A DNA stretch of 64,000 nucleotides from Escherichia coli. GTDB lineage: Bacteria > Pseudomonadota > Gammaproteobacteria > Enterobacterales > Enterobacteriaceae. The stretch is from the NCBI RefSeq assembly GCF_003334405.1, contig NZ_QOWM01000004.1; one strand, 5' to 3'. The notes below the pieces were generated by a model. It was not told where the DNA came from, did no database searches, and worked only from the letters and a program-made list of their open reading frames with translations. Shown piece after piece: positions 10,750 through 34,996 of the stretch; position 1 is the first letter of the stretch, and each line of letters begins with the position of its first letter. The translations under genes were made by a program, and so were the position numbers.

Positions 10750-10806
10750 TGCGATTTACTTTTCTTTGCATAGATTGACTCAGAAAAACGTTTAAGGGTG
10801 GGTGGC

Positions 10807-11637
10807 ATGTTTGTTCCGTTTCTCATTATGTTGCGCGAAGGACTTGAAGCCGCGCTGATTGTCAGTTTGATTGCCAGCTATCTTAAGCGTACCCAGCGAG
10901 GCCGATGGATTGGTGTGATGTGGATTGGCGTGTTGCTTGCCGCTGCGTTGTGCCTGGGCTTGGGTATCTTCATTAACGAAACCACCGGCGAATTTCCGCA
11001 AAAAGAACAGGAACTGTTTGAAGGTATCGTGGCGGTGATCGCCGTGGTGATCCTTACCTGGATGGTTTTCTGGATGCGCAAAGTGTCGCGCAACGTCAAA
11101 GTGCAACTGGAACAGGCAGTCGATAGCGCATTGCAGCGTGGAAATCATCATGGCTGGGCGCTGGTGATGATGGTCTTTTTTGCCGTTGCAAGGGAAGGGC
11201 TGGAGTCGGTCTTTTTCCTGCTGGCGGCATTTCAACAAGATGTCGGGATCTGGCCGCCGCTGGGTGCAATGCTCGGTCTTGCTACTGCCGTGGTGCTAGG
11301 CTTCCTGCTCTACTGGGGCGGTATTCGCCTCAATCTTGGTGCATTTTTTAAATGGACCAGCCTGTTTATTCTCTTCGTCGCCGCAGGGCTGGCAGCTGGT
11401 GCCATTCGCGCATTTCATGAAGCCGGATTGTGGAACCACTTTCAGGAAATCGCCTTCGATATGAGTGCGGTGCTCTCAACTCACTCGCTGTTTGGCACGC
11501 TGATGGAAGGGATTTTTGGCTATCAGGAAGCGCCGAGCGTCAGCGAAGTCGCCGTCTGGTTTATTTATCTCATCCCGGCGCTGGTGGCATTTGCTCTGCC
11601 ACCACGCGCAGGGGCGACAGCGTCTCGCTCCGCGTAA
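10807..11637 (+). CDS. efeU: EfeU, FTR1-family ferrous iron permease (intact reading frame, two REGLE motifs)
   Basis: ORF track 10798..11637 (GTG-extended); ATG at 10807 gives MFVPFLIMLREGLEAALIV...; second REGLES motif present; uninterrupted 276 aa. Confidence 0.93.
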   Translation: MFVPFLIMLREGLEAALIVSLIASYLKRTQRGRWIGVMWIGVLLAAALCLGLGIFINETTGEFPQKEQELFEGIVAVIAVVILTWMVFWMRKVSRNVKVQLEQAVDSALQRGNHHGWALVMMVFFAVAREGLESVFFLLAAFQQDVGIWPPLGAMLGLATAVVLGFLLYWGGIRLNLGAFFKWTSLFILFVAAGLAAGAIRAFHEAGLWNHFQEIAFDMSAVLSTHSLFGTLMEGIFGYQEAPSVSEVAVWFIYLIPALVAFALPPRAGATASRSA

Positions 11638-14443: not shown

Positions 14444-15508
14444 ATGGTAACGTCCTGTACTGGACATGTTTTAGATAATCAACGCGCCACCACTCGCGGA
14501 GTTTTCTCCTCCGGTAGTCATCTCGTCACTTTGCATTTTCAACCTCATCCTTTCTTTTCATGTGTTACCGACGCCGTAAACGGTGCGCGTAGCCGTTTTT
14601 CGGCATTTTATCCAAAAGCAAACTATGGCTTACAAGGAAGCCAACCCTCTGATGTTCGTGCGCATAATCGCGCTGCCAACGGCGCGTGTGATGAATACAA
14701 ACAACTCAAGGTGCTCTCCATGGGAAGACAAAAAGCAGTGATCAAAGCTCGTCGCGAGGCAAAACGTGTGCTGAGACGGGATTCGCGCAGCCATAAGCAG
14801 CGTGAAGAAGAATCGGTCACCTCGCTTGTGCAGATGGGCGGCGTAGAAGCCATTGGTATGGCCCGCGACAGTCGCGATACTTCGCCCATCCTCGCGCGAA
14901 ATGAAGCGCAATTGCACTATCTGAAGGCTATTGAGAGTAAGCAGCTGATATTCGCCACGGGCGAAGCCGGGTGCGGAAAAACCTGGATCAGCGCAGCAAA
15001 AGCGGCAGAGGCCCTGATACATAAGGATGTCGACAGGATTATCGTCACCCGTCCAGTTCTGCAAGCCGATGAAGATCTTGGCTTCTTACCTGGAGATATC
15101 GCAGAAAAGTTTGCTCCCTATTTTCGCCCGGTCTACGACGTGCTGGTCCGGCGCTTAGGGGCTTCCTTTATGCAGTACTGCCTGCGACCGGAAATAGGGA
15201 AGGTGGAAATTGCGCCGTTCGCCTATATGCGTGGACGTACCTTTGAAAATGCAGTCGTCATTCTTGACGAGGCGCAGAATGTGACTGCCGCGCAAATGAA
15301 AATGTTTTTAACCCGCCTCGGGGAGAACGTGACGGTTATCGTCAACGGTGATATCACGCAATGCGATTTGCCTCGCGGCGTGTGCTCCGGATTAAGTGAC
15401 GCGCTGGAACGTTTCGAAGAAGATGAAATGGTTGGGATCGTCCGGTTCGGTAAAGAGGACTGCGTACGTTCGGCACTTTGCCAACGTACGCTGCATGCCT
15501 ACAGTTAA
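14444..15508 (+). CDS. phoH: PhoH, phosphate-starvation-inducible ATPase (PhoH-like)
   Basis: ORF track 354 aa with Walker A GEAGCGKT. Confidence 0.93.
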   Translation: MVTSCTGHVLDNQRATTRGVFSSGSHLVTLHFQPHPFFSCVTDAVNGARSRFSAFYPKANYGLQGSQPSDVRAHNRAANGACDEYKQLKVLSMGRQKAVIKARREAKRVLRRDSRSHKQREEESVTSLVQMGGVEAIGMARDSRDTSPILARNEAQLHYLKAIESKQLIFATGEAGCGKTWISAAKAAEALIHKDVDRIIVTRPVLQADEDLGFLPGDIAEKFAPYFRPVYDVLVRRLGASFMQYCLRPEIGKVEIAPFAYMRGRTFENAVVILDEAQNVTAAQMKMFLTRLGENVTVIVNGDITQCDLPRGVCSGLSDALERFEEDEMVGIVRFGKEDCVRSALCQRTLHAYS

Positions 15509-15557
15509 GTGTGTTATCGGTGCAGAGCCCGGGCGAACCGGGCTTTGTTTTGGGTGT

Positions 15558-15971
15558 TTATGCCCGGACTAGCGCTTTTTCTGAAACAACCATTTTTATT
15601 TGCCCCTGGCTGGTGAAGTGTACGCTCATCCTGTGGCTTTTTTGTAGTTGCTGATAGAGCTCATCAGGTATTGCTAAGCTCTCTGCATATTCTTGCGGCG
15701 TATATTGGTAGGCTGCATGATGCTGCTGTTTTTGAAAACGCAGCTTATTGTACAGCGCCCAGACAATTAACACGACGGCATTCGCCACTGCCAGCAAAAA
15801 ATAGAACTGAAGTCGGCTTCTGGCCTCGCTTTGCCAGTAATAACCCGTCAGCAGATCCATGGCGAATAAGAATATGAACAACGCAAATAATGTCCACAAG
15901 ATGGTTGTGGCAACATAATCAACCAGTAAACGTACTGGTGATTGTCGGGTCGTAATAATTAAATTGTTCAT
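15558..15971 (-). CDS. pgaD: PgaD, PGA (poly-beta-1,6-GlcNAc) synthesis accessory membrane protein
   Basis: ORF track 137 aa [26 protein letters not shown]; last gene of pgaABCD. Confidence 0.93.
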
Positions 15972-15972
15972 A

Positions 15973-17298
15973 TTAACCTCTCAGAATCCCGCGATCGGGA
16001 CTTACCCAACGGGCGCGTTGCTTTTTAGGCATCAACATGACTCGTGTAAATGATACCAATGTCGTTGCCAGGCTCAGCATCCAGAAAATAACCGGGAACC
16101 AAATAATCCAGAAAAGCGATGAAGTCAGATTATGCTCATAGCGATTCTCGATCATCAGGCTGACAATAAATTGCAGTAAACATAACGTACACAATAATAT
16201 TCCGGCAGTATGTGTCGCAGCGATATGTGTCAATTCAATATTTAACGGTACACCGGCAAGTTGGACTGCGTAAATAATGAAACCGACCAGGCAGGTGAAG
16301 GCCCATATTGTCGTCAGGCAGTATTCAAAAAACAGCGGCCACATTCGAAAGTTTTCTTTGCGCCACAACCTTGTCATATTTTTGAGGAATACTTCTGCAC
16401 CGCCCTGAGCCCAGCGCAGGCGCTGTTTCCACAGCCCTTTTAACGTTTCAGGCATTAATATCCAGCACAGTGCCCGTGGCTCGTAAAAAATCGTCCACTG
16501 ATTCAACTGCAGCTTCCAGCTAATATCAATATCTTCGGTGATCATATCGTCACTCCAGTAACCCACTTCTGCCAGGGCGCTGCGACGAAATGCGGCAATA
16601 ACACCGGAAACGGTAAATACGTTTCCATAGATACGCTGGGTTCGCTTGATCAAACCAATAATTGAGGAATACTCGCCAACCTGAATTTTACCCACCAGGG
16701 TAGAACGTGTTCGAATACGAGGATTACCGGTTACGGCACCCACACGCGGGTTGTACAACATCGGTTCCACAATATATGCCGCCGCATCGCGGTCTAATAA
16801 CGCATCGCCATCAATGCACACCAGATATTCACTTTTCGCCGCGGCAGCTCCGGTTTTAAGCGCAATGGCTTTCCCCTGGTTTTGCGCCAGATGAATGACC
16901 CGCAAATGGGGAATTTGTGCAGCCATGCGATCCAGGATGGCACGGGTTTTATCTGTTGAACCGTCATTTACGGCAATAACTTCAATGTTCTCATAACGCT
17001 GTGCTAAAGCGGCGTGTATGGTTTCCTCAACGTTTTTCTCCTCATTAAAACAGGGAATGATAATGGAGATAGACGGATTATCTTTCAACTGGGGAGCTGG
17101 TGCGTTTTCTCCCCACGGCCAGTGGCGTTCACGATAGACCCAGAAATAGACGCCGCCAACAATCCACATAATGGACATAAAAAACGGCCAGAAGAAAACG
17201 AACCTCATCATCAGTTCACCAGAGTGAAAGTACGCTACGCATAGGGGTATGCATAACACCAGACATAATATAAAAAACGATACGATGCGATTAATCAT
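15973..17298 (-). CDS. pgaC: PgaC, GT2-family poly-beta-1,6-N-acetylglucosamine synthase
   Basis: ORF track 441 aa; glycosyltransferase family 2 motifs ([13 protein letters not shown]-like). Confidence 0.95.
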
Positions 17299-19309
17299 TT
17301 TTCGGATACCAGGCTGTTGAAAACTCAGGACGAATAAGGTCTATTTCAGGTTGGTTATGCAGAAAATTGTCGGGATAATAACCATAGTTTTTCACTCCAT
17401 TCAGTTGTAATAGGCTCATCCAGTGAGCGAGTTGTTGCGAAGAAATAGCCTGATGCTGACCATTTTTCTGCCAGTTTTGTGCCTGTAATTCTAAAATAGA
17501 TTTGTCTTTAGCCTGAGGGATGTTTTTAATTTGATTGGTCAATTGTATTAACCATTGGTCAGCCGATTTTTCTGCGACACCTTCCAGATAAGGCATAGCC
17601 ATAATAGCGGTCCAGTCATAGCTTTTTAGGAAATCAGCATAATTCTGTGCAAACCAGGCTTCACTTTCAGGTTGTATTACCGGAAGTGCAAAAATATTTC
17701 GTGCAGTTTTAATATGTGGACCGCGAATGGCTTTTACGCGCGCACTAAGTTCTAAAGTGAAGTCAGTTAACGCACGACTTTTAAAGCGGGCCCACTGTTT
17801 AAATTGCTCCGGGTTTTGTCGAATTTCGCTCAGACTCCCGCTAAAGCCTGCTTGCTGATAAGCCGTGATAGCCGGTGCACTGGCATCTTCATAATCTGAA
17901 AGCAAAGCATCATCGTGGAACAATATGCCATCAAAAGCAGCATGTCCGGCAAGATCTTCATATAACATGCCAACTTGTGCTCTGACTCTGTCATCGAAAG
18001 GAGAGAGACGGTGATATTGTTCAGGATGAATTTGTGCTTTTTTCTCCCCTGTTGGTAAGTATTTTACTCGCGTTAATGTGGGATCTAAATCCCAGCTTAA
18101 TACCGGCATCCACGCATAGATGTTTACACCTGAGCGGGTACGTAATTGCCAGGCAACCCGACTAAAAATATCTGCTTTCATTGGTAGCAAACGATTTGGA
18201 AACCAGACCTCTTTGACCAGCCCATCACCATCGGGATCAGCAAATGCCTGCAAATACACGGTTGATATTTGCATATCTTTCACCCGCTGAATTAGCACAT
18301 CAATATTGCGATCCATTTGCTGGAGGTTTTCGTCATAAACGTAATCAAGATCGATATGCATTATCCGTTGTGGTGATTTTTCCTGTACGGTAATAATTTG
18401 CTGGGCAAACTCTTTTAATGAGGGATTATTGGCGATTAATACCCGCGGAATGGAATCCAATTGCGACGCATTTGCCAAACCTGATTCAAGGGTGAAGAAC
18501 ATGTCATAACCGATTTTTTTTAATTCCTCTATCGCTATGCCATTCGCTTCGCCATAAGGCCAAACAAAAACGTGTGGATTTACCTCAACCTTTGTACGCA
18601 GGTATTCCGTCATTTTTACAGCATCCAGACGAATTCTTTCCCGGTATTCTGCTGCGGTTTCATACCGTGCGTGGTCAGTAAAATATGCACGATTTACATA
18701 TACAGGCAATAAGCTGCCGGTGGCATTAGCCTGAATACCGTAGTGAGAATTCCATGTATGAGAAGCGAGCTCAACGAGCCGGGAACGCGCAACTTCTCGC
18801 ACTTGTTGCCACGTGGCAAAATATTCTCGATCGACCAACTCATCGCCAAATTTTACTTGTTTATCCGCTGGCGTATCGACCCAACTGCCGACGGGGGCCC
18901 ATACAGCAGGCCACTGGAAGGCCTGAAGAATTGGGAAGACGCGGGTATAAAAACTCTGGTAGCCGTCATCAAAAGTCAGCACTACAGCTTTTTCCGGTAG
19001 CGGTTTTCCTCCTCGATGTGCTTCACGAATTTGAGCAATACTGACCGGTTGATAACCGTTCTCGCGCAGCCAGGCAAATTGTTCACGCAGTGCTGATGTC
19101 CGCACTGACATAAAACGCTGGTCGGCAGCTTCGTCTTCAACGTTATGCCATGAAATCGCTACAAAACCATTATGCGGCCACGGTTGCTCGGCGAGTAAAG
19201 ATTCGCGATCCTGTGGCGGTATAAATGATGTTCTTGACTGGCTAATGCACGCGGTGAGCATAATTATACTCACCAGCATCAGGAGATATTTATTTCCATT
19301 ACGTAACAT
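17291..19309 (-). CDS. pgaB: PgaB, PGA N-deacetylase / export lipoprotein
   Basis: ORF track 672 aa with lipoprotein signal (LTAC); overlaps pgaC start by 8 nt. Confidence 0.95.
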
Positions 19310-19317
19310 ATTTATCC

Positions 19318-21741
19318 TTAAAATCTGAATGTCATATCGAATTCAACGTATAAGTTGTGTTCTCTGTCACCGTCATAAGGTCGTTTTTCCCAGCGTAGCG
19401 TTGCGCCAGCATCAATCACGTCATTCCAACTAATGCGTTGCCCGTAGCCGAGTTGGGTGACGACATCCGTGCCATAATGTTTTTGCCAGGAGGCACCAAC
19501 ACCTGCGCTGAATATTTGCTCCCAGCTATTTTCATAGCTTCGCCATAACAAATGGCTTGCCTCAAATGCCGGAACAATATCGAACGTTTTTATAGGGTTG
19601 TAGTATGGGGTATCGTGTTCTGTATTTTGTTCGTAATACAGACTGGGTAGGAAATCGACAATCAAATATGGTGAAGACCAGATGCGTTCCTGACCCTCAA
19701 GTGAGACTTCATGACGCTGGTTACTGTCGGAAAAATCAGTGAAAGCCCAGGAGACACCGTACTTACGCCGCTCATTTTGATACCAGCGAACATAAGCCTG
19801 AGCACTGTTGCCTGTAACACCATTTTTCATTGCCCGTAATGGAACGCGGTGAGAGAGGCGTTCCAGTTGCGAACCAATACGCCAGTTATCATTAAAATCA
19901 TACCAGCCAGACAGGCGCGCGCCGGGTTTATGCTCATGATTGAAAACGCGTTCAGCGTACTCTGCCTCGAGCCAGATATTACGTGACCGCCACTCAACAC
20001 CCGCAAGCCAGTCGCGAACAATCCCTTTTCCTTCGCTAAATTGTCCATCGGCATAACCGAATCCAGCAAAACCGCGCCAGTTATCCTTCAGCGGTGGTGA
20101 ATAAACGATGGTGGTTAAGTCGACATCATGTTTACCACTATCCGGGCCTTCGGCATCAATTCCTGTTGAGCCAGCGATACGAAGCTCTGCAAGATTATGT
20201 ACATCAACCGCACGTTTTAATCGTACAACGCCGGGATCTTGCGGTTCACGTTCGACAACATCGTGCGTTAAGACAGCTGCCTGCTGCCATTCTTGTAACG
20301 TTAATGCTGTCCAGGCTTGTTCAACCTCCAGATTAATATTACGTGGCTCGATCACTTCTGCTTTTTTTAATTCATTTTCTGCTGCACGAGGCCAACCGCG
20401 GGCTTGTAACACACTCGCGTAATCAATGCGCAGTCCCTGATTTCCTGGTGCGTTATAAGCAAGCTCTCTGGCTGTCATTTCAGCCTGAGGAAGATCATTA
20501 CTATATTTTGCTACGGTTGAGAGAAACGAATGCCCCTGTAACCAGGTATCATTCGGGATGCTCGTAGGCGTGCCCATTAACCGAAGGAAAGGCGGCGAAG
20601 TATTAATGGTATGTTGGGTGACAGTTAGCGCGCCCGGATAATTTTCACTCTCCAGGTGGCTGTAAAAGAGATCCGCAAGTTCTTCATCGGATAAATCCGG
20701 GGCAATGGTCTCCTTGTGATAAAAGAGCTCGGTCATTATTGACTGTGCTTTTTTCGGCTGATGATCTTTGAGATAAGCCGATGCAACCCAATATTGCCCC
20801 CAGGGCGGAATAATTTGCCCCGTCTTTTTTAATCGCTGATAGTGAGAAATAACGTCTTTATAACGATCGCGAGTTAATAACGCGCCAAGATGATCAACCT
20901 GAATACGCTGGTACTGGGCAGTGCGGTCTGGGTTATCGTGCCACAGAATTTCTAATGCAGCGTATTGGGCGAGGGCGCGATCGGCAATGGCATAACGTTC
21001 ACTTTCACTGCGCGTAGGCATAAACGACAGTCTGACCAGTTCGGCATGAATATCAGCGCGAATATCTGGCGTTAAATTGGCATCGTCAATCGCGGCAGCA
21101 AGTTGATTATTACGTAATGCCTGCACGTATTCTGTGGGATATTGTTGCGTAGATGCATTTTCAGGTAATGACTCTGTCATCGCCCGTAATTCATCCTGAT
21201 GACGCCCCGCCAGTTTATAGATATAGGCTTCTGCGAGTAAATTGGCTTTGTCCGGTGCTCCAGAGTTAAGCTGCTTAAGTTTAACCAGCGCAGTATCATA
21301 GTGACCAGCATCTGCCAGGGTTAAAATTTGTCCCCGTTGATAATCCTTATTTTGCGGCTCCAGAGAGAGCGCCTTTTGCCACAGTGTAAGCGAGTTTTGC
21401 CATTGTTGCAGGTTACGATAAGCGACGGCGACAGCTGCATAACCACGCGCTGGTAATTGCTGATGACGGTAGCGGTTGTAAACGGTAATAACCTGTTTAT
21501 CTTGCCCGGCCCATAAGGCAATCTGTAACCAGTCAGCAATTTGGTTATTGCTGAGTGCTGATTTTAGTGCAAACCATGACAAAGCTGGCTGAGTATTACC
21601 CTTGCGAGCTTCAATAATCAATGCATCATAGGCGTTATTAACAGCACTCTTCGCCGCGGGACTCGCTGCTAAAAATGCGGCAGTAAGAAGTTTCAAAGCC
21701 CATTTGGTTTTCGGGCACCTTTTTCTGCTACTTGAATACAT
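19318..21741 (-). CDS. pgaA: PgaA, outer-membrane PGA export porin (TPR + beta-barrel)
   Basis: ORF track 807 aa MYSSSRKRCPKTKWALKLLTAAFLAASPAAKS. Confidence 0.95.
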   Translation of the reverse strand: MYSSSRKRCPKTKWALKLLTAAFLAASPAAKSAVNNAYDALIIEARKGNTQPALSWFALKSALSNNQIADWLQIALWAGQDKQVITVYNRYRHQQLPARGYAAVAVAYRNLQQWQNSLTLWQKALSLEPQNKDYQRGQILTLADAGHYDTALVKLKQLNSGAPDKANLLAEAYIYKLAGRHQDELRAMTESLPENASTQQYPTEYVQALRNNQLAAAIDDANLTPDIRADIHAELVRLSFMPTRSESERYAIADRALAQYAALEILWHDNPDRTAQYQRIQVDHLGALLTRDRYKDVISHYQRLKKTGQIIPPWGQYWVASAYLKDHQPKKAQSIMTELFYHKETIAPDLSDEELADLFYSHLESENYPGALTVTQHTINTSPPFLRLMGTPTSIPNDTWLQGHSFLSTVAKYSNDLPQAEMTARELAYNAPGNQGLRIDYASVLQARGWPRAAENELKKAEVIEPRNINLEVEQAWTALTLQEWQQAAVLTHDVVEREPQDPGVVRLKRAVDVHNLAELRIAGSTGIDAEGPDSGKHDVDLTTIVYSPPLKDNWRGFAGFGYADGQFSEGKGIVRDWLAGVEWRSRNIWLEAEYAERVFNHEHKPGARLSGWYDFNDNWRIGSQLERLSHRVPLRAMKNGVTGNSAQAYVRWYQNERRKYGVSWAFTDFSDSNQRHEVSLEGQERIWSSPYLIVDFLPSLYYEQNTEHDTPYYNPIKTFDIVPAFEASHLLWRSYENSWEQIFSAGVGASWQKHYGTDVVTQLGYGQRISWNDVIDAGATLRWEKRPYDGDREHNLYVEFDMTFRF

Positions 21742-21980
21742 CCTGTATTACTCCATGTATTGCCAAAATCTCTCTCTGTATCTAATTACAGGTAACTGAA
21801 AAGAAAGATATTTTTGCACCTCATAATCCGTTATTAAACGCGGAAGAGAGACGTGAATTGTTGATGATGAGAAGAAGAAATGATGAGCAGAGTGTCCATA
21901 TAAAATCCTTTTCTCGCCCGAAAATCCATTCCAATGATGAGGATCTTCAGGAATACGGCATAAATCCCAATGCCTTTTTC
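21742..21980 (-). promoter_or_regulatory. pgaA 5' leader region (site of CsrA-mediated translational repression)
   Basis: Long untranslated region upstream of pgaA with multiple GGA motifs on the transcribed strand; extent approximate. Confidence 0.5.
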
Positions 21981-22327
21981 AAAATAAATTAGGATTAAAA
22001 TAATTAAATCAGTAAATTCCGATGCATGATTTCGGATTTTTCGAAAGTCCTGATGAAAGGCTGCGCTACGGCACTCACGGATTTAATTGTTATTCCTAAT
22101 GTATCTATGAATTAATGTTTTATAAGGATTTTCTATAACCATTTATAAGTATTTTCAAGCCTGGCTTGTTGCAAACAATGTATAAAGCACTTAGGCAATA
22201 ATAATTACATTCAGCAACTATCATCATCGGTATTGTTTGTGGGCGGAATTTCATATTGACAACAGTACAGTTCTTATATCTATTAATAATAGAAAGGGAT
22301 CTACAACCTACAGATTGGTGTAGCTTT

Positions 22328-23686
22328 ATGGAAAAAGACTATTTGAGAATTAGTAGTACTGTATTAGTGAGCTTATTGTTTGGGCTTGCTTTGGTTTTGG
22401 TGAATAGTTGGTTTAATCAGCCAGGCGTTGAGGAAGTTGTTCCACGATCAACCTATCTGATGGTAATGATTGCTTTATTTTTTATCGATACTGTTGCATT
22501 TATTTTTATGCAGTTGTATTTCATTTATGACCGTAGGCAATTTTCAAACTGTGTACTTAGTTTGGCTTTTCTGAGTTGTTTGATTTACTTTGTTATAACC
22601 GTCATTATCATTCAGCAAATTATTGAGGAGCGTTTGACAAGCAGTGTTGTCCAAAATGACATTGCAATCTATTATTTGTTTCGTCAGATGAGTTTGTGCA
22701 TATTAATATTTCTGGCATTGGTGAATAAAGTTAGTGAAAACACAAAACAGCGCAATTTATTTTCCAAAAAAATGACTTTGTGCATAAGTTTGTTTTTTGT
22801 TTTTGGGGGGCCGATAGTTGCTCACATACTTTCTAGTCATTATGAGAGCTACAATTTACACATTGCCGAGTTAACCAATGAAAATGGTCAGGTGGTTTGG
22901 AAAGCCTCATATGTTACCATAATGATTTTCATGTGGTTAACCTTGCTTTCGGTTAATCTATACTTTAATGGTTTACGCTATGATATCTGGAATGGAGTGA
23001 CGGTGATTGCTTTTTGTGCCGTACTGTACAATATCTCTCTGTTATTTATGAGCAGGTATAGCGTGTCCACTTGGTATATTAGTCGCACTATTGAAGTAGT
23101 CAGTAAGTTAACCGTTATGGTAATATTTATGTGCCATATATTCAGTGCGCTACGAGTAACAAAGAACATTGCACATCGCGATCCCTTAACCAATATATTT
23201 AACAGAAATTATTTTTTTAATGAACTGACAGTTCAATCAGCATCAGCCCAAAAAACGCCTTATTGCGTCATGATTATGGATATCGACCACTTCAAAAAAG
23301 TCAACGACACCTGGGGGCATCCGGTTGGCGATCAGGTGATAAAAACAGTGGTGAATATCATTGGGAAAAGCATACGACCAGATGACCTTTTAGCGCGCGT
23401 CGGCGGCGAAGAGTTTGGCGTCTTGCTGACGGACATCGATACTGAACGTGCGAAAGCTTTAGCGGAAAGGATTCGGGAAAATGTTGAGCGTTTAACTGGC
23501 GATAATCCTGAATACGCTATACCACAAAAAGTGACGATTAGTATTGGCGCTGTTGTGACTCAGGAAAATGCGTTAAACCCAAATGAGATCTATCGACTGG
23601 CTGATAACGCACTTTACGAGGCGAAAGAGACCGGGCGTAATAAGGTGGTTGTGAGGGATGTGGTGAATTTTTGTGAGTCACCATAA
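22328..23686 (+). CDS. dgcT: DgcT (YcdT), membrane-anchored GGDEF diguanylate cyclase
   Basis: ORF track 22256..23686; start trimmed to MEKDYLRISSTVLV (452 aa); C-terminal GGEEF motif (RVGGEEFGVLL). Confidence 0.93.
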   Translation: MEKDYLRISSTVLVSLLFGLALVLVNSWFNQPGVEEVVPRSTYLMVMIALFFIDTVAFIFMQLYFIYDRRQFSNCVLSLAFLSCLIYFVITVIIIQQIIEERLTSSVVQNDIAIYYLFRQMSLCILIFLALVNKVSENTKQRNLFSKKMTLCISLFFVFGGPIVAHILSSHYESYNLHIAELTNENGQVVWKASYVTIMIFMWLTLLSVNLYFNGLRYDIWNGVTVIAFCAVLYNISLLFMSRYSVSTWYISRTIEVVSKLTVMVIFMCHIFSALRVTKNIAHRDPLTNIFNRNYFFNELTVQSASAQKTPYCVMIMDIDHFKKVNDTWGHPVGDQVIKTVVNIIGKSIRPDDLLARVGGEEFGVLLTDIDTERAKALAERIRENVERLTGDNPEYAIPQKVTISIGAVVTQENALNPNEIYRLADNALYEAKETGRNKVVVRDVVNFCESP

Positions 23687-23726
23687 AGCGGCATTTTGAT
23701 CCTACCCACGTAATATGGACACAGGC

Positions 23727-24593
23727 CTAAGCGAGGTTCTTGTTTTCAAATTGTTCCGGACTGAGGCCGCCACACCAACTGTGCCGCCGCCACCGATTGT
23801 AATCACATTCGATATAATTAAACACCGTTGCCCGCATTATTTCCCGGCTGATAAAGTGTTCTCCATGGATACATTCCACTTTCAGCGAATGAAAGAAGCT
23901 TTCCACGCAGGCATTATCGTAGCAGCAACCTTTTGCGCTCATACTTCCACGCAGATTATGCCGCTTCAGTTGCGCCTGATAATCTGCTGAACAGTACTGG
24001 CCTCCACGGTCCGTGTGAACGATAACGTTCCGGGGCCTCTTACGCCGCCACAGCGCCATCTGCAGGGCATCGCAGGCCAGTTGCGCCGTCATGCGTGGCG
24101 ACATTGACCAGCCAATAACGGCACGTGACCACAGGTCAATGACCACTGCCAGATACAGCCAGCCTTCATCTGTACGTAAGTACGTGATGTCTCCTGCCCA
24201 CTTCTGGTTCGGGCCACTGGCGTAAAAATCCTGCTCCAACAGATTTTCTGACACAGGCAGGCCGTGTGCGCGGTAGCTGACCGGGCTGAACTTCCGGGAG
24301 GCCTTTGCCCTCAGTCCCTGACGGCGCAGGCTTGCCGCCACGGTTTTTACGTTAAAGGGGTAACCCTGAGCACGCAGTTCATCCGTCAGGCGTGGGGCAC
24401 CGTAACGCTGTTTTGACCGGGTAAAAGCCGCGAGGACAACGCTGTCGCAGTGTTGGCGGAACTGCTGACGCGTGCTTATCCTTGTCCGCCGCTGACACCA
24501 CGTATACCAGCCGCTGCGGGCCACCCGGAGCACGCGGCACATTGCTTTGATGCTGAACTCAGCCTGATGTTTTTCAATAAAGACATACTTCAT
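23727..24593 (-). CDS. insF: IS3 OrfB (InsF) transposase, DDE catalytic domain
   Basis: ORF track 288 aa [32 protein letters not shown]; overlaps orfA (ATGA). Confidence 0.95.
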
Positions 24594-24889
24594 TTCAGGC
24601 GCTTCGCGAAGTATGTCGCGGCCTTTTGGAGGATAGCCAGCTCTTCATCCCGTTCTGCCAGCTGGCGTTTGAGACGTGCAATCTCGGTAGACATCTCCAG
24701 TTCACGTTCAGAAGACGTCTGCTGATTTTGCTGTTTACTGCGCCAGTTGTAGAGTTGTGATTCATACAGGCTGAGTTCACGGGCTGCGGCAGTAACACCG
24801 ATGCGTTCAGCAAGCTTCAGGGCTTCACTGCGAAATTCAGGCGAATGCTGTTTACGGGGTTTTTTACTGGTTGATACTGTTTTTGTCAT
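24590..24889 (-). CDS. insE: IS3 OrfA (InsE), HTH DNA-binding transposase subunit
   Basis: ORF track 24590..24898 (GTG-extended); ATG gives [31 protein letters not shown] (99 aa). Confidence 0.93.
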
Positions 24890-24954
24890 GTGAGTCACCT
24901 CTGACTGAGAGTTTACTCACTTAGCCGCGTGTCCACTATTGCTGGGTAAGATCA

Positions 24955-25298
24955 GTGCCTGGCACACGCGTTTGATGGAAGACGGCGTTCAGGCAATGCG
25001 CGATTATCTTGCCGGACTGGATATCGCTTCGCCAGAGCATCAGGTTCTGATGAACGTAACAGCAAAAAGCGAGGTCGCTCCGTCAATTATCAAAGAAAAT
25101 CTCTCATTACACTTAACTCATACGGTGAAATGGACTGAATCTCTCGATACATTTCTGAATATGCCAACCCCGGTAGCTTTCCTTGAAATAAGTAATAAGC
25201 CCTATTTGGGGAATATGTTAAATGATTTTGCTGGCGTGGATCAGCAACGAGTTATGCATTGTCGTAAAGCATTTAGTGATGCAAAGGTATTCAAATGA
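24955..25298 (+). pseudogene. ymdE: Truncated C-terminal fragment of an acyltransferase (malonyl-CoA:ACP transacylase-like) gene abutting IS3
   Basis: ORF track 24939..25298 begins inside the IS3 inverted repeat; no plausible N-terminal domain; translation resembles the C-terminal lobe of FabD-like acyltransferases. Confidence 0.6.
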
Positions 25299-26281
25299 TT
25301 CCTGATTATTTAACTTTTATTCGCTTTCAGGATAAACGAAATCTGATATACATTTATGCTATTGGACTTATTCTGATAGGCTTTTATTGGAAGAATGCAG
25401 GGTTTACTTTTCCATCAGAGGATATTGGTGTAGTTAGTGGGATTCTGGCTCTGGTGCTGTATAATTTTATTTTTGATCTCAAGGCGTACTGGGCTTATAA
25501 ATGCGTCACGAAGAATATCGATTTTTCGTGGTTTAAGAAAAAGCAGAACCACAAAATAGAATTATTTCTTACACAACCTCTGGTGGCAGGATTTCTGTCG
25601 TTAATCATGTTGAGTGCAATGAGTTGGGGGCTATACCAGCTTCTACCCTCGTTATATGCGCTGTTCCTGATTTCGTTACTTGGGCCGTTGGTCATCTTTC
25701 TGCTGTTTCGGATGATCCGCACCAGTTATGTCAAGCAGGTCGCTATTTCAGTAGCGAAAAAAGTAAAATATAAAAGTCTGACTCGCTATGTGCTGCTTTC
25801 GGTGTGCATCTCAACGGTTGTTAACCTGCTTACTATCAGCCCGTTGCGTAACAGTGATTCTTTTGTGACAGAGGGGCAGTGGTTAACGTTTAAATCGATA
25901 ATTGCATTGCTCATTCTTTGTGGCGTAGTGTTGGCGATTAATCTGTTTTTTCTGCGCTTCTCCAAGCGGTACGCTTTTCTGGGCAGGCTTTTTTTGCAGG
26001 AAATCGATCTGTTTTTCTCCAGTGAAAATGCGTTGTCGACCTTTTTTGCCAAGCCGCTTTGGCTTCGGTTATTCATATTGCTGGTTATTGAAGTGATGTG
26101 GATTACGCTGGTGTCGGTATTGGCAACGCTTGTAGAATGGCGGATTTGGTTTGAAGCCTATTTTTTACTCTGCTATGTACCGTGCTTAATTTACTATTTT
26201 TTCTATTGTCGATTCCTCTGGCATAACGATTTTATGATGGCATGTGACATGTATTTCCGTTGGGGGCATTTTAATAAGTGA
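25295..26281 (+). CDS. ycdU: YcdU, predicted polytopic inner-membrane protein of unknown function
   Basis: ORF track 328 aa [32 protein letters not shown]; many hydrophobic segments; AT-rich. Confidence 0.9.
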
Positions 26282-26413
26282 GGAAGTGATAGGAAGTGAC
26301 CAGATAATACATATATGTTCTGTACTCTCTTGCGCATTTTGATTGTTGACTGAGTAACCAGACAGTTGATGTGCACGATTTCCCCTCGCCCTAACAGACG
26401 TGGGCGGGGGCAC

Positions 26414-26835
26414 CCGGTGTGTGCAATATACGAAAAAAAAGCCCGTACTTTCGTACGAGCTCTTCTTTAAATATGGCGGTGAGGGGGGGATTGACTCGCT
26501 TCGCTCGCCCTGCGGGCAGCCCGCTCACTGCGTTCACGGTCTGTCCAACTGGCTGTCGCCAGTTGTCGAACCCCGGTCGGGGCTTCTCATCCCCCCGGTG
26601 TGTGCAATATACGAAAAAAAAGCCCGTACTTTCGTACGAGCTCTTCTTTAAATATGGCGGTGAGGGGGGGATTGACTCGCTTCGCTCGCCCTGCGGGCAG
26701 CCCGCTCACTGCGTTCACGGTCTGTCCAACTGGCTGTCGCCAGTTGTCGAACCCCGGTCGGGGCTTCTCATCCCCCCGGTGTGTGCAATATACGAAAAAA
26801 AAGCCCGTACTTTCGTACGAGCTCTTCTTTAAATA
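26414..26835. repeat. Tandem direct repeat, 181-bp unit x ~2.3, each unit carrying a copy of the serX 3' end and its terminator
   Basis: Identical ORF-track fragments begin at 26419, 26600 and 26781 (period 181); sequence ccggtgtgtgcaatatacgaaaaaaaagcccgtactttcgtacgagctcttctttaaatatggcggtgaggggggatt... repeats exactly. Confidence 0.92.
26781..26835 (-). terminator. serX rho-independent terminator (copies recur in each repeat unit)
   Basis: Reverse strand immediately after tRNA CCA: GAGCTCGTACGAAAGTACGGGC hairpin followed by TTTTTTTT. Confidence 0.75.
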
Positions 26836-26923
26836 TGGCGGTGAGGGGGGGATTCGAACCCCCGATACGTTGCCGTATACACACTTTCCAGGCGTGCTCC
26901 TTCAGCCACTCGGACACCTCACC
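26836..26923 (-). tRNA. serX: tRNA-Ser (GGA anticodon), 88 nt with long variable arm and encoded CCA
   Basis: Reverse strand reads GGTGAGGTGTCCGAGTGGCTGAAGGAGCACGCCTGGAAAGTGTGTATACGGCAACGTATCGGGGGTTCGAATCCCCCCCTCACCGCCA. Confidence 0.95.
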
Positions 26924-27117: not shown

Positions 27118-28095
<978 letters not shown>

Positions 28096-30981: not shown

Positions 30982-31398
30982 TTAAAAATCGGTTGAGTTA
31001 TTTTGTAAACCCGAAACCTGGATGGTCGAGGTTTGTCCGGTTTTACGATCTGTCACGTTCAACTGCAATTGACCATCGCGGTTGGCAATATCGACAATAT
31101 AATCGTTGGTCACCATGCGGCCCGGTTTACCGGTATTAATATTCGACAGTAGCCCACCTAAAATTTGTGACTGGATGGCCTGAGTAAAGTTATCTAACGC
31201 TGAGGGTGTTTCAATACCAAAGTCATCGTTATAGCTCGGATCTTTATAAGAGTTTTGGGCCTGAGCGCTATTTAATAAAAAAGCGCCATTATTTGGGTTA
31301 CCACCAAAGTTTGGATTACGGAACTGGAAAGTCATGGTTCCAGCCCAACTTAATGGCGAAATAAGCATGAGTAGAACTACTGCATGTTTGACACGCAT
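30982..31398 (-). CDS. csgF: CsgF, curli assembly/nucleation accessory protein
   Basis: ORF track 138 aa [33 protein letters not shown]. Confidence 0.96.
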
Positions 31399-31422
31399 TG
31401 CAGCCTCCGAACAATTTTTTAT

Positions 31423-31812
31423 TTAGAATTCATCATGCGCCAAATCGCCCGTACTTAATAACGCCTGATTTATCTGGCGACGATTTAGTGCTTCTTCAGT
31501 TTGAATCAGTGCAAAGACGACAGTTTTCTCGAAGTCTCTTTTCAACGGAAATAAAAAAGTCTGGAAAATAACGTCCTGATTGACCGTTATAGTGATCCAG
31601 CTTCCCCATCGTGCACTGGGCCTTTCATTAATCGTTAAGTTACCCGTATAGTCACTTTCCCATTTATCACTAAAGGCTCGGTAAAAATCATGGCCAATAG
31701 ATGAAACAGTATGGTCAGTTAGCAATCCCGGGACTTCTACCTCAACGGCGTGAAGATTCCCTGCGGCGAACAGAAATTCTGCCGCCACAATCCAGCGTAA
31801 ATAACGTTTCAT
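31423..31812 (-). CDS. csgE: CsgE, curli secretion specificity factor
   Basis: ORF track 129 aa [31 protein letters not shown]. Confidence 0.96.
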
Positions 31813-31816
31813 GGCT

Positions 31817-32467
<651 letters not shown>

Positions 32468-33221
32468 GATGAAACCCCGCTTTTTTTATTGATCGCACAC
32501 CTGACAGCTGCCTCTAAAATAGAAGCACCAGAAGTACTGACAGATGTTGCACTGCTGTGTGTAGTAATAAATCAGCCCTAAATGGGTAAAATATAAAACT
32601 AATGGATTACATCTGATTTCAATCTAGCCATTACAAATCTTAAATCAAGTGTTAAACATGTAACTAAATGTAACTCGTTATATTAAAATGTTAACCTTAA
32701 GGTTTTGTTAAGTTTAGAAATGATAGAAAAGTTGTACATTTGGTTTTTATTGCACAATTTTAAAAAATCATACAAATGGTGATAACTTACTAATAATGCA
32801 TATAAAAAATATTTCGGTGTAGTCCTTTCGTCATGTAAAACGTTCTTGTTTTTTCTCCACACCTCCGTGGACAATTTTTTACTGCAAAAAGACGAGGTTT
32901 GTCACGGCTTGTGCGCAAGACATATCGCAGCAATCAGCGACGGGCAAGAAGAATGACTGTCTGGTGCTTTTTGATAGCGGAAAGCGGAGATTTAAAAGAA
33001 AACAAAATATTTTTTTGCGTAGATAACAGCGTATTTACGTGGGTTTTAATACTTTGGTATGAACTAAAAAAGAAAAATACAACGCGCGGGTGAGTTATTA
33101 AAAATATTTCCGCAGACATACTTTCCATCGTAACGCAGCGTTAACAAAATACAGGTTGCGTTAACAACCAAGTTGAAATGATTTAATTTCTTAAATGTAC
33201 GACCAGGTCCAGGGTGACAAC
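32468..33221. promoter_or_regulatory. csgD-csgB divergent intergenic regulatory region (csgDEFG and csgBAC promoters)
   Basis: 754-bp AT-rich non-coding region between divergently transcribed csgD and csgB; only short spurious ORFs. Confidence 0.8.
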
Positions 33222-33677
33222 ATGAAAAACAAATTGTTATTTATGATGTTAACAATACTGGGTGCGCCTGGGATTGCAGCCGCAGCAGGTTATGATTTAG
33301 CTAATTCAGAATATAACTTCGCGGTAAATGAATTGAGTAAGTCTTCATTTAATCAGGCAGCCATAATTGGTCAAGCTGGGACTAATAATAGTGCTCAGTT
33401 ACGGCAGGGAGGCTCAAAACTTTTGGCGGTTGTTGCGCAAGAAGGTAGTAGCAACCGGGCAAAGATTGACCAGACAGGAGATTATAACCTTGCATATATT
33501 GATCAGGCGGGCAGTGCCAACGATGCCAGTATTTCGCAAGGTGCTTATGGTAATACTGCGATGATTATCCAGAAAGGTTCTGGTAATAAAGCAAATATTA
33601 CACAGTATGGTACTCAAAAAACGGCAATTGTAGTGCAGAGACAGTCGCAAATGGCTATTCGCGTGACACAACGTTAA
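33222..33677 (+). CDS. csgB: CsgB, curli minor subunit / nucleator
   Basis: ORF track 33195..33677; start trimmed to MKNKLLFMMLTILGAPGIAAA (151 aa); Q/N-rich repeats. Confidence 0.96.
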   Translation: MKNKLLFMMLTILGAPGIAAAAGYDLANSEYNFAVNELSKSSFNQAAIIGQAGTNNSAQLRQGGSKLLAVVAQEGSSNRAKIDQTGDYNLAYIDQAGSANDASISQGAYGNTAMIIQKGSGNKANITQYGTQKTAIVVQRQSQMAIRVTQR

Positions 33678-33717
33678 TTTCCATTCGACTTTTAAATCAA
33701 TCCGATGGGGGTTTTAC

Positions 33718-34173
33718 ATGAAACTTTTAAAAGTAGCAGCAATTGCAGCAATCGTATTCTCCGGTAGCGCTCTGGCAGGTGTTGTTCCTCAGTACGGCGG
33801 CGGCGGTAACCACGGTGGTGGCGGTAATAATAGCGGCCCAAATTCTGAGCTGAACATTTACCAGTACGGTGGCGGTAACTCTGCACTTGCTCTGCAAACT
33901 GATGCCCGTAACTCTGACTTGACTATTACCCAGCATGGCGGCGGTAATGGTGCAGATGTTGGTCAGGGCTCAGATGACAGCTCAATCGATCTGACCCAAC
34001 GTGGCTTCGGTAACAGCGCTACTCTTGATCAGTGGAACGGCAAAAATTCTGAAATGACGGTTAAACAGTTCGGTGGTGGCAACGGTGCTGCAGTTGACCA
34101 GACTGCATCTAACTCCTCCGTCAACGTGACTCAGGTTGGCTTTGGTAACAACGCGACCGCTCATCAGTACTAA
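33718..34173 (+). CDS. csgA: CsgA, curli major subunit (amyloid, five imperfect repeats)
   Basis: ORF track 151 aa MKLLKVAAIAAIVFSGSALAGVVPQYGGGGNHGGGGNNSGPNSELNIYQYGGGNSALALQ. Confidence 0.97.
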   Translation: MKLLKVAAIAAIVFSGSALAGVVPQYGGGGNHGGGGNNSGPNSELNIYQYGGGNSALALQTDARNSDLTITQHGGGNGADVGQGSDDSSIDLTQRGFGNSATLDQWNGKNSEMTVKQFGGGNGAAVDQTASNSSVNVTQVGFGNNATAHQY

Positions 34174-34192
34174 TACATCATTTGTATTACAG

Positions 34193-34220
34193 AAACAGGG
34201 CGCAAGCCCTGTTTTTTTTC
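34193..34220 (+). terminator. Rho-independent terminator after csgA
   Basis: aacagggcgcaagccctgtt hairpin followed by T8. Confidence 0.75.
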
Positions 34221-34231
34221 GGGAGAAGAAT

Positions 34232-34996
<765 letters not shown>

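Follow-up and report, generated by a model that had tools for sequence, protein, structure and literature searches.

The stretch of the Escherichia coli chromosome that is bounded by the phoH terminator and the RtT repeats of serX, and carries pgaABCD, dgcT, an IS3 element, the ymdE remnant and ycdU, is very probably an old composite accessory region, assembled in a hot spot by several insertions and a deletion and silenced by H-NS and StpA. The block is a mosaic of an ancient pgaABCD-dgcT module, a right-end stump of an OI-47-like island (ymdE'-ycdU), and an IS3 copy that marks a clade-wide deletion. That the region is AT-rich, variably present and silenced by H-NS is already textbook knowledge; the practical value of the present analysis is modest and current understanding is unchanged. 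The locus is a worked example of a housekeeping-looking K-12 region that is actually layered accessory DNA, combining a biofilm operon and its c-di-GMP partner, an island stump, an IS deletion scar, a tRNA hot spot, and quieting by H-NS/StpA. It accounts for the cryptic PNAG of laboratory strains and for the roughly one fifth of E. coli in which PNAG is absent. Its empty site is relevant to a question raised in the literature, namely loss of pga by Salmonella or gain by Escherichia.

Organization of the locus

The window, that is the whole stretch of 64,000 nucleotides that was analyzed, comes from a K-12-like E. coli and is 99.97% identical to MG1655 (NC_000913.3) from about position 1,070,550. 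The block spans window positions 15552–26412, and the region is laid out as follows.

15509–15551: left boundary, phoH stop codon and phoH terminator hairpin GAGCCCGGGCGAACCGGGCTTTGTTTT
15558–21741, minus strand: pgaDCBA operon, transcribed from pgaA to pgaD
15558–15971, minus strand: pgaD
15973–17298, minus strand: pgaC
17291–19309, minus strand: pgaB
19318–21741, minus strand: pgaA
21742–22327: pgaA-dgcT intergenic region, divergent regulatory spacer
22328–23686, plus strand: dgcT (ycdT), membrane diguanylate cyclase, annotated MASE4 and GGDEF
23697–24954, minus strand: IS3 (IS3D; insE/insF)
24996–25298, plus strand: ymdE pseudogene
25295–26281, plus strand: ycdU, polytopic membrane protein
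26413–26854, minus strand: right boundary, 2.4 tandem 181-bp RtT-type units
26836–26923, minus strand: serX, tRNA-Ser(GGA), 3' end towards the block

The four co-oriented pga genes encode, in order, an outer-membrane porin (PgaA), a deacetylase (PgaB), a GT2 synthase (PgaC), and a small membrane subunit (PgaD) that makes up the PNAG synthase with PgaC. Their open reading frames are intact and near-identical to those annotated in K-12, the sole base change being in pgaB at window position 18514, and the match carries the RefSeq pga names in more than 4000 genomes. Eight TM-like segments are found in DgcT and seven in YcdU, which matched none of the NCBIfam models. The gene content given in a preliminary description of this DNA (biofilm polysaccharide and c-di-GMP genes, a membrane protein, an IS element and a pseudogene) is borne out, with the exact coordinates listed above.

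Base composition and codon usage

The same description had presented the region, by eye, as a low-G+C block enriched in rare codons. Sliding-window G+C analysis places it outside the sampled background range. The G+C content of the block is 44.8% (43.6% without IS3), to be compared with a mean of.513 (sd.018, minimum.460) for the 10-kb windows of a 200-kb sample of MG1655. It is thus AT-richer than the genome average, as expected of xenogeneic DNA, lying about 3.6 to 4.3 sd below windows of the same size and below all 10-kb background windows. The exception inside the block is IS3, which is not AT-rich (.53; insF.551).

The gene values are.442 for pgaD,.467 for pgaC,.444 for pgaB,.473 for pgaA,.386 for dgcT,.413 for ymdE, and.405 for ycdU, corresponding to percentiles 1.3–7.7 among the 155 ORF-proxy genes of the MG1655 sample (mean.518, sd.035). 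Third-position G+C falls in the lowest 2–15%, and dgcT and ycdU also have a low second-position G+C. The AT-richest segment of the block is the pgaA-dgcT intergenic region (.370). Outside, phoH (.522), putA (.570), ghrA (.512), and opgH (.550) are higher. The claimed contrast with the flanking putA and opg genes stands for putA and opgH but not for opgC (.439), which matches the block in AT-richness, as do csgDEF, csgB, and csgC (.42–.43). By codon adaptation index, pgaD, dgcT, and ycdU rank around the 1st percentile, and pgaB, pgaA, and pgaC between the 8th and 20th. Richness in rare codons (AGA, AGG, AUA, CUA, CGA) is confirmed for pgaD and dgcT (98th–99th percentile) and for pgaB (94th), but pgaA is ordinary.

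Of the compositional signatures of genomic islands, the block shows an atypical G+C content and codon usage but not an atypical dinucleotide signature. The strand-symmetric delta* is 46 for the block and 37 ± 13 for background windows of the same size, 21% of which are equal or higher; this fits an old acquisition. The curli (csg) genes, a few kb away, are AT-rich like the block yet syntenic in Salmonella and Citrobacter, so that low G+C alone is weak evidence for acquisition.

Distribution and the empty site

The comparison of genomes showed that the block is not universally conserved. Among 5426 complete E. coli genomes, pga is present in 79% (4271, with at least 80% coverage), dgcT in 77%, and ymdE-ycdU in 48%. 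The distance between phoH and ghrA is within about 2 kb in 641 genomes, which have either IS1 deletions or a DUF2726 cassette. The IS1 deletions leave pgaD/pgaC stumps and are secondary losses. The cassette, found in IAI1-type strains, is 1.2 kb long (G+C.40) and occupies the identical slot, with boundaries at 15551 and about 26413.

Strains and genera without the block are homologous to the window on the left side up to position 15551: the hairpin is common to IAI1, Salmonella, and C. koseri, and the sequences then diverge. The site is empty in Salmonella enterica and C. koseri, where 5–240 bp separate the phoH terminator from an RtT unit, which serX and ghrA follow. The intervening sequence amounts to 5 bp in Salmonella and consists of REP-like repeats alone in C. 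koseri. The outgroups that define the empty site are few, with a single genome each of Salmonella, C. koseri, and another Citrobacter. Such variable presence at the same site among relatives is characteristic of genomic islands.

Relatives of the pga operon

No pga gene was found near phoH, serX, or ghrA in any non-Escherichia genome examined. An E. coli-type pga operon occurs in Citrobacter sp. Awk 4 at an unrelated locus, among MCP, APC-permease, and TRAP-transporter genes. The operons of Klebsiella, C. youngae, and Cedecea lie at other loci and have the G+C of their hosts. Loci of the pgaABCD/hmsHFRS type (Klebsiella, Enterobacter, Citrobacter, Cupriavidus) share with E. coli the four- or three-gene pgaA-B-C(-D) architecture. 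The E. coli operon differs from them by a location unlike that of each other genus examined, by a G+C content 4–7 points under that of the host whereas the other PNAG loci match theirs, and by its pairing with dgcT, seen in Escherichia only among the loci compared. It also forms a separate long branch relative to other Enterobacterales loci. PgaA is 42–51% identical to the proteins of Enterobacter and Klebsiella, and likewise to those of Xenorhabdus, Serratia, and Plesiomonas, while PgaC is 66% identical to that of Klebsiella and 61% to that of Cupriavidus. This flat profile contrasts with that of GhrA, which is 79–81% identical to its Salmonella and Citrobacter counterparts.

Within Escherichia, the order phoH-pga-dgcT-RtT-serX is unchanged in the divergent lineage L005, and the pgaA-dgcT intergenic region is the most divergent segment in comparison with a distant lineage (75.7% nucleotide identity). 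Identity to the B2 strain Nissle is 97.2–99.2% for the block genes and 96.1–97.2% for the flanks. No genuine plasmid with a pga operon was found; the 11 'plasmid' matches are large non-mobilizable E. coli records of up to 4.8 Mb and are probably mislabelled pieces of chromosome. The search identified neither a donor for the block nor a direct repeat flanking it. Proximity of pga to a tRNA gene was seen at serX in Escherichia and next to tRNA-Phe/yjdC in Klebsiella pneumoniae.

Mosaic structure downstream of dgcT

The region had been read as a single block, a reading that is not upheld: the modules differ in frequency (79% versus 48%) and in their junctions, which points to separate events. The last ~34 bp of dgcT differ between K-12/O157-type and B2-type strains. 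In Nissle, dgcT is joined directly to the RtT array, in the middle of a unit and not at the att core. In the window, dgcT is followed by IS3, for which the 3-bp target-site duplication of a simple insertion is absent (flanks TTT and GTG). It thus lies at the junction left by a deletion or recombination, in agreement with the truncation of the adjoining malonyltransferase gene. The exact dgcT-IS3 junction is found in 2298 of the 5426 genomes (42%).

The ymdE pseudogene retains about 38% of an ACP S-malonyltransferase gene, from its 3' end; in O157:H7 the gene has its full length of 942 bp. The final gene is ycdU of an OI-47-like cluster of lipid/polyketide type. The complete cluster, which we take to be O-island 47 (OI-47), lies between dgcT and ycdU in O157:H7, with its gene content verified in strain 4276. 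The window keeps only the last 1.3 kb of it (ymdE'-ycdU), IS3 replacing the rest. The slot, the ycdU flank, serX, and the att core TGGCGGTGAGGGGG are all identical to those of the O157:H7 phoH-serX region (PMC3064760), which differs by having OI-48/SpLE1 at serX, whereas the window is without a serX-integrated island.

RtT repeats and serX

Between the ycdU stop codon and the 3' end of serX there are 555 bp, which include the RtT units. Every unit holds a copy of the serX terminator together with 19 nt from the 3' end of serX; among these is the 14-bp att core defined by Bielaszewska et al. 2011 (PMC3064760), present at 26474, 26655, and 26836. The Rfam RtT family (RF00391) gave two matches on the minus strand, at 26474–26610 and 26655–26791, by a narrow margin (46.3 bits, gathering threshold 45), and the same element is called RtT sRNA by PGAP in strain NRZ106056. 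At tyrT, the RtT (tpr) array has a 178-bp unit repeated 3.14 times downstream of the gene, each unit including 19 nt from the 3' end of the tRNA. The serX array is likewise tandem (181 bp), is located 3' of a tRNA gene, and has a terminator and 19 nt of tRNA 3' end in every copy. It differs in belonging to serX, in that its copies include the att core of serW/serX-specific islands, and in its variable copy number, both between close strains (2.4 versus 3.4) and between genera.

In other strains, islands of the OI-48/SpLE1 and Nissle types, with P4-type integrases, are integrated at serX, which is unoccupied here. These integrases are confined to the separate serX islands in O157 and Nissle, and no integrase ORF was found in the block, where IS3 is the sole mobile element. 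The preliminary description had a tRNA gene with att-like repeats bounding the region on one side. Indeed, serX adjoins it and each RtT unit contains the att core, but the repeats do not bracket the block, as, apart from the three copies listed, TGGCGGTGAGGGGG was found neither at the left edge nor elsewhere in the 64-kb window with up to two mismatches. With neither bracketing repeats nor an integrase, the tRNA adjacency marks a hot spot and is not proof of an integrase-mediated insertion of pga-dgcT. In carrier strains the serX islands sit between the block and serX, so that the block is their chromosomal flank. The att cores of serX and the RtT units, used by other islands, did not detectably mediate the insertion of the block.

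Alternative origins

Echeverz et al. 2017 (PMC5464674) inferred that pga descended vertically for the most part in Enterobacteriaceae and was lost in Salmonella, the PgaABCD trees agreeing broadly with phoH and with the species tree and losses being frequent. For the present locus, pga would be ancestral, Salmonella and some Citrobacter would have lost it, and the low G+C would result from regulatory or functional constraint, as in the curli genes, and not from a foreign origin. The IS1 stumps show that secondary loss occurs in E. coli, csgDEFG/BAC are as AT-rich and yet syntenic across genera, and the dinucleotide signature is normal. However, Salmonella has just about 5 bp from the phoH terminator to the RtT unit, so that a loss there would need an exact excision. 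The phoH/serX/ghrA neighbourhood is without pga in all the non-Escherichia genomes examined, E. coli PgaA is equally distant from genera of the same family and from other families, and the IAI1 cassette, although different, has identical boundaries. An ancestral pga at this site is considered unlikely.

It is still less plausible, to the point of being very doubtful, that the entire 10.8 kb entered as one tRNA island by means of a serX-specific P4-type integrase acting at the att core, the integrase and the distal att having decayed. The 3' end of serX does point at the block, the att core is present three times at the right edge, and such islands occupy serX in O157:H7 and Nissle. Against this stand the missing left att core and integrase, the position of the known serX islands between block and serX, the unequal module frequencies, and the mid-unit junction of dgcT in B2. 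Finally, the low G+C could be a regional fluctuation due to the amino-acid composition of membrane proteins, devoid of evolutionary meaning: PgaC, PgaD, DgcT, and YcdU are hydrophobic, with 2–8 TM-like segments each, and dgcT and ycdU have the low second-position G+C noted above. This can practically be dismissed, since third-position G+C is also depressed, the soluble PgaB and outer-membrane PgaA are affected too, the AT-richest part is non-coding, no background 10-kb window is as low, and the presence/absence data independently agree with acquisition.

Proposed history

Horizontal acquisition, already put forward in the preliminary description, is supported by the empty outgroup sites, the polymorphism within E. 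coli, the IAI1 cassette in the slot, and the different location of pga in Awk 4. On these comparative data, an Escherichia ancestor would have gained an AT-rich pgaABCD-dgcT module of ~8 kb, coding for the synthesis and export of PNAG and for a diguanylate cyclase, with the phoH terminator on one side and an RtT unit on the other. An OI-47-like island of ~30 kb, ending with the malonyltransferase gene and ycdU, would then have entered the 3' end of dgcT in an ancestor of phylogroup A/B1/E type. As can be read directly from the sequence, IS3 then removed the DNA that began just past the stop codon of dgcT and ended midway through the malonyltransferase gene, giving the IS3-ymdE'-ycdU haplotype of the window and of 42% of complete E. 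coli genomes.

It is suggested, tentatively and with somewhat less than even confidence, that the module was inserted cleanly in the Escherichia ancestor, after the phoH terminator and next to RtT/serX, that Salmonella, contrary to the published proposal, did not lose pga, that pga may recur as cargo of tRNA hot spots, and that RtT units with an att core could serve as extra or decoy landing sites, allowing islands to pile up while serX stays intact.

Silencing by H-NS and StpA

As a last step, for which there are published data, H-NS and StpA would bind and fold the DNA of the block because it is AT-rich, leaving it near-silent in laboratory growth. Expression would require counter-silencing together with the known pga regulators NhaR, CsrA, and c-di-GMP.

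The silencing by H-NS that had been surmised from composition is borne out by RNA-seq. Gavrilov et al. 2025 (PMC12460168, Supplementary Table 1) list pgaA-D, ycdT, and ycdU as horizontally transferred genes (HTGs) overlapping H-NS/StpA-dependent hairpins (CHINs). The locus is identical to that of these K-12 CHIN/CHID-associated HTGs, nothing differing, and its mosaic structure and insertion site were not dissected in that work. All six genes are derepressed upon deletion of hns, as expected of xenogeneic DNA, with log2 fold changes of 2.7 (pgaA), 2.9 (pgaB), 4.0 (pgaC), 3.2 (pgaD), 1.9 (ycdT), and 3.6 (ycdU). In the hns stpA mutant the values are 3.9, 4.0, 5.5, 4.6, 6.3, and 5.9, respectively. 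This represents a 4–16-fold derepression in hns and 15–78-fold in hns stpA (PMC12460168). In the same study, pgaC was one of four HTGs validated by RT-qPCR, and netropsin also derepressed pgaA-D, ycdT, and ycdU.

Insertion between phoH and serX

The window derives from a K-12-like E. coli and matches MG1655, starting near position 1,070,550, at 99.97% identity. It has one 181-bp RtT unit fewer next to serX, and a 1-bp indel (extra G at 10912) leaves efeU (10798–11637) as an intact 279-codon ORF, where MG1655 carries the classic K-12 frameshift pseudogene. Intact efeU and about a dozen SNPs relative to MG1655 indicate a K-12-like strain other than MG1655. According to the ORF list, the genes named for the AT-rich block in the preliminary description were correct, and the limits proposed there (15500–26300) coincide almost exactly with those of the insertion delineated below.

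Features from phoH to ghrA (coordinates in the window; strand in brackets)
14444–15508 (+), phoH
15558–15971 (-), pgaD
15973–17298 (-), pgaC
17291–19309 (-), pgaB
19318–21741 (-), pgaA
21742–22327, pgaA-dgcT intergenic region
22328–23686 (+), dgcT
23697–24954, IS3
24996–25298, ymdE pseudogene
25295–26281, ycdU
26413–26854, tandem repeats (RtT-type)
26836–26923 (-), serX
27157–28095, ghrA

The whole block is absent from E. coli IAI1, where homology to the window ends at 15551, just past the phoH terminator hairpin, and restarts inside the repeat array at about 26413. In Salmonella enterica, the phoH terminator is followed by 5 bp, one repeat unit, serX and ghrA. The slot of Citrobacter koseri contains only REP-like repeats, and in Citrobacter sp. 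Awk 4 the repeat-serX-ghrA segment is preceded by unrelated genes (Big_1, GntR, PTS). As the slot is empty or otherwise filled in IAI1 and the outgroups, the block is a 10.86-kb insertion spanning 15552–26412. No long repeats, direct or inverted, were found to bracket it; the search yielded only short matches at chance level.

The slot of IAI1 (locus L003, 3044–4278) is occupied by an AT-rich cassette of 1,235 bp (G+C.40) with a DUF2726 gene, which, in many E. coli that lack pga, takes the exact place of the 10.9-kb block. To the left of the block, the flank is likewise variable among genera: the putP-phoH interval of the Salmonella and C. koseri loci (L088, 3785–8478; L089, 7856–8302) has no efeUOB, and in the Salmonella strain it contains an LRR/NEL effector gene and a transposase instead. 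Directly beside the left edge of the block, on the strand opposite the 3' end of phoH (15310–15503, - strand), Rfam gives a strong match to the Yersinia antisense sRNA family Ysr251 (189 bits for a gathering score of 100).

Distribution among E. coli genomes

Presence was counted in 5,426 complete E. coli genomes, with a coverage of at least 80% for pga. The block is not universal: the pga operon was found in 4,271 genomes (79%), dgcT with the intergenic region in 4,183 (77%), and ymdE-ycdU in 2,601 (48%). The distance from phoH to serX-ghrA is within about 2 kb in 641 genomes, which are either IS1-mediated deletions with a pgaD/pgaC stump, as in NRZ106056, or carriers of the DUF2726 cassette. 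No credible plasmid carrier of the pga operon was found in PLSDB; the 11 matches are all large non-mobilizable E. coli records of up to 4.8 Mb, and are probably chromosome pieces. Together with the empty or otherwise filled slot in IAI1, Salmonella and C. koseri, the presence of pga in 79% of genomes supports the proposal of horizontal acquisition beside a tRNA hot spot.

Base composition and codon usage

The G+C content of the block is.448, or.436 without IS3, whereas 10-kb windows from four 50-kb MG1655 regions have a mean of.513 (sd.018, minimum.460). The pga genes have values of.442 (pgaD),.467 (pgaC),.444 (pgaB) and.473 (pgaA). Those of the intergenic region, dgcT, ymdE and ycdU are.370,.386,.413 and.405, and the flanking phoH, putA and ghrA are at.522,.570 and.512. 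Compared with 155 long-ORF proxy genes from the same MG1655 regions (mean.518, sd.035), the block genes stand at percentiles 1.3–7.7. The low G+C noted by eye is thus borne out quantitatively, except for IS3, which had been included in the low-GC block and is normal to rich in G+C (.53; insF.551).

The codon adaptation index, with ribosomal-protein genes, tufA and fusA as reference, places pgaD, dgcT and ycdU around the 1st percentile, and pgaB, pgaA and pgaC between the 8th and 20th. The supposed richness in rare codons holds for pgaB, dgcT and pgaD, where the five rarest codons reach the 94th–99th percentile, but not for pgaA, which is ordinary. The strand-symmetric dinucleotide signature of the block is not atypical (delta* 46 vs 37 ± 13 in the background), and promoter-like sites are not enriched beyond composition (24 vs 22.3 ± 5.6 in shuffles).

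Elsewhere in the window (30982–34564 and 37055–38212), the curli genes csgDEF, csgB and csgC, as well as ymdA and opgC, equal the block in AT-richness (G+C.42–.44), yet they are syntenic in Salmonella and Citrobacter. Low G+C alone is therefore no proof of recent transfer.

Silencing by H-NS

That the block is silenced by H-NS, as the preliminary description proposed, is well supported by the RNA-seq and Micro-C data of Gavrilov et al. (2025; PMC12460168). In Supplementary Table 1 of that work, pgaA, pgaB, pgaC, pgaD, ycdT (dgcT) and ycdU are each classed as horizontally transferred and as overlapping H-NS/StpA-dependent chromosomal hairpins. Their wild-type expression is low, at about 15–95 normalized counts, and they are derepressed in the mutants (PMC12460168). 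Netropsin has effects on these genes similar to those of the hns and hns stpA mutations, and pgaC was among four such genes validated by RT-qPCR (PMC12460168).

Derepression of the block genes (log2 fold change in the hns mutant; in the hns stpA mutant; PMC12460168)
pgaA: 2.7; 3.9
pgaB: 2.9; 4.0
pgaC: 4.0; 5.5
pgaD: 3.2; 4.6
ycdT (dgcT): 1.9; 6.3
ycdU: 3.6; 5.9

Repeats at serX

The serX repeats are RtT units with att cores for other islands. In each 181-bp unit (26413–26854), 19 nt from the 3' end of serX are present together with its terminator. With 46.3 bits for a gathering score of 45, the tandem units are narrowly accepted as RtT RNA by Rfam, and the same element is annotated as RtT sRNA by PGAP. 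The units include the 14-bp att core TGGCGGTGAGGGGG, the direct repeat through which O-islands 43/48 and the Shigella SRL island integrate and excise at serW/serX (Bielaszewska et al., PMC3064760). As every repeat unit has an att core, the serX locus offers several potential landing sites. The number of repeat copies varies, from about 1.4 in Salmonella and C. koseri to 2.4 in the window and 3.4 in MG1655.

Three copies of the att core are present in the window, all at the serX edge of the block, and no further copy with up to two mismatches was found elsewhere in the 64 kb, including the far edge of the block. The att-like repeats attributed to serX are thus real, but they lie at one edge only and serve other islands. 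The ORF list contains no integrase gene in the block, and in strains with serX islands (O157:H7, Nissle) these sit between the block and serX. Adjacency to the tRNA gene is consequently the mark of a hot spot, and is silent on the arrival of pga-dgcT.

Mosaic structure of the block

The block is a mosaic of multiple events, whose intermediate states are seen in other strains. In O157:H7 strain 4276, a cluster of about 30 kb lies between dgcT and ycdU, with genes for two-partner secretion and for fimbriae, a set of fatty-acid/polyketide-like genes, an ABC exporter, a LolA-like protein and a full-length ACP S-malonyltransferase gene (942 bp). It is followed by a P4-type integrase island, with the junction exactly at the att core. 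Of the malonyltransferase gene, the window retains the 3' ~38%, as ymdE. The bases next to IS3 are TTT on one side and GTG on the other; the element thus lacks a 3-bp target duplication and sits on a deletion junction. As 2,298 of the complete E. coli genomes share precisely this dgcT-IS3 junction, it is an old clade-wide haplotype rather than a K-12 peculiarity. IS3 marks a widespread deletion of an island resembling OI-47. In the B2 strain Nissle and in the divergent Escherichia lineage L005, the ycdU cluster is absent and the dgcT stop codon directly abuts a partial repeat unit; the last ~34 bp of dgcT differ between the K-12 and B2 types.

Age and origin of pga-dgcT

Acquisition of pga-dgcT was probably an ancient event. 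The gene order phoH-pgaDCBA-dgcT-repeat-serX-ghrA is kept in L005, with flanks of 88–95% nucleotide identity. While pgaD and pgaC are flank-like (91–92%), pgaB, pgaA, the intergenic region and dgcT (L005, 3649–10008; window, 17291–23686) are only 76–80% identical. This step points to a recombination breakpoint near pgaC/pgaB, and the sharp change within the operon suggests allelic replacement through recombination. A divergent pga allele, in the 80–90% identity band, is present in about 80 complete "E. coli" genomes. Relative to Nissle, conservation of the block genes (97.2–99.2%) equals or exceeds that of the flanks (96.1–97.2%).

Relatives of PgaC were sought in genome contigs with exact 8-mer peptide patterns, which yielded few Enterobacteriaceae and many distant GT2 enzymes, the informative loci being confined to L004–L018. 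In no non-Escherichia genome examined was pga found near phoH, serX or ghrA. An E. coli-like operon is present in Citrobacter sp. Awk 4 and sp. NCU1 (PgaC 89%, PgaA 73–74%), with no phoH, dgcT or ghrA nearby in either genome; in Awk 4 its neighbours are MCP, APC-permease, Ldh-family, TRAP-transporter and GntR genes. The operons of Klebsiella, C. youngae and Cedecea are at other loci, with PgaA at 41–43%, PgaC at 65–67% and a G+C content matching that of the host. PgaA identity reaches a plateau of 42–51% in genera of the same family (Enterobacter, Klebsiella, Kluyvera), equal to that in other families (Xenorhabdus, Serratia, Plesiomonas, Erwinia), and PgaC shares 61% identity with its counterpart in Cupriavidus, a betaproteobacterium. 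In contrast, GhrA is 79–81% identical in Salmonella and Citrobacter.

The published scenario is vertical descent of pga with loss in Salmonella (PMC5464674), and the gene-tree congruence reported there is real counter-evidence to a gain by Escherichia. The empty sites, the identity plateau and the lack of shared synteny outside Escherichia nevertheless favour, from a small outgroup sample, an ancient gain of pga-dgcT by Escherichia. As all features are annotated and well studied, the finding is already known; only the clean empty-site evidence brings a mildly new angle, on gain versus loss of pga.

In Klebsiella pneumoniae ATCC 13883 (L010, 175–7984), the Klebsiella-type pga operon is some 2.4 kb away from a tRNA-Phe gene, beside a dicD/yjdC homologue. 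This site is the neighbourhood of pheU, likewise well known as a hot spot for islands, and pga may be a cargo of tRNA hot spots in more than one genus.
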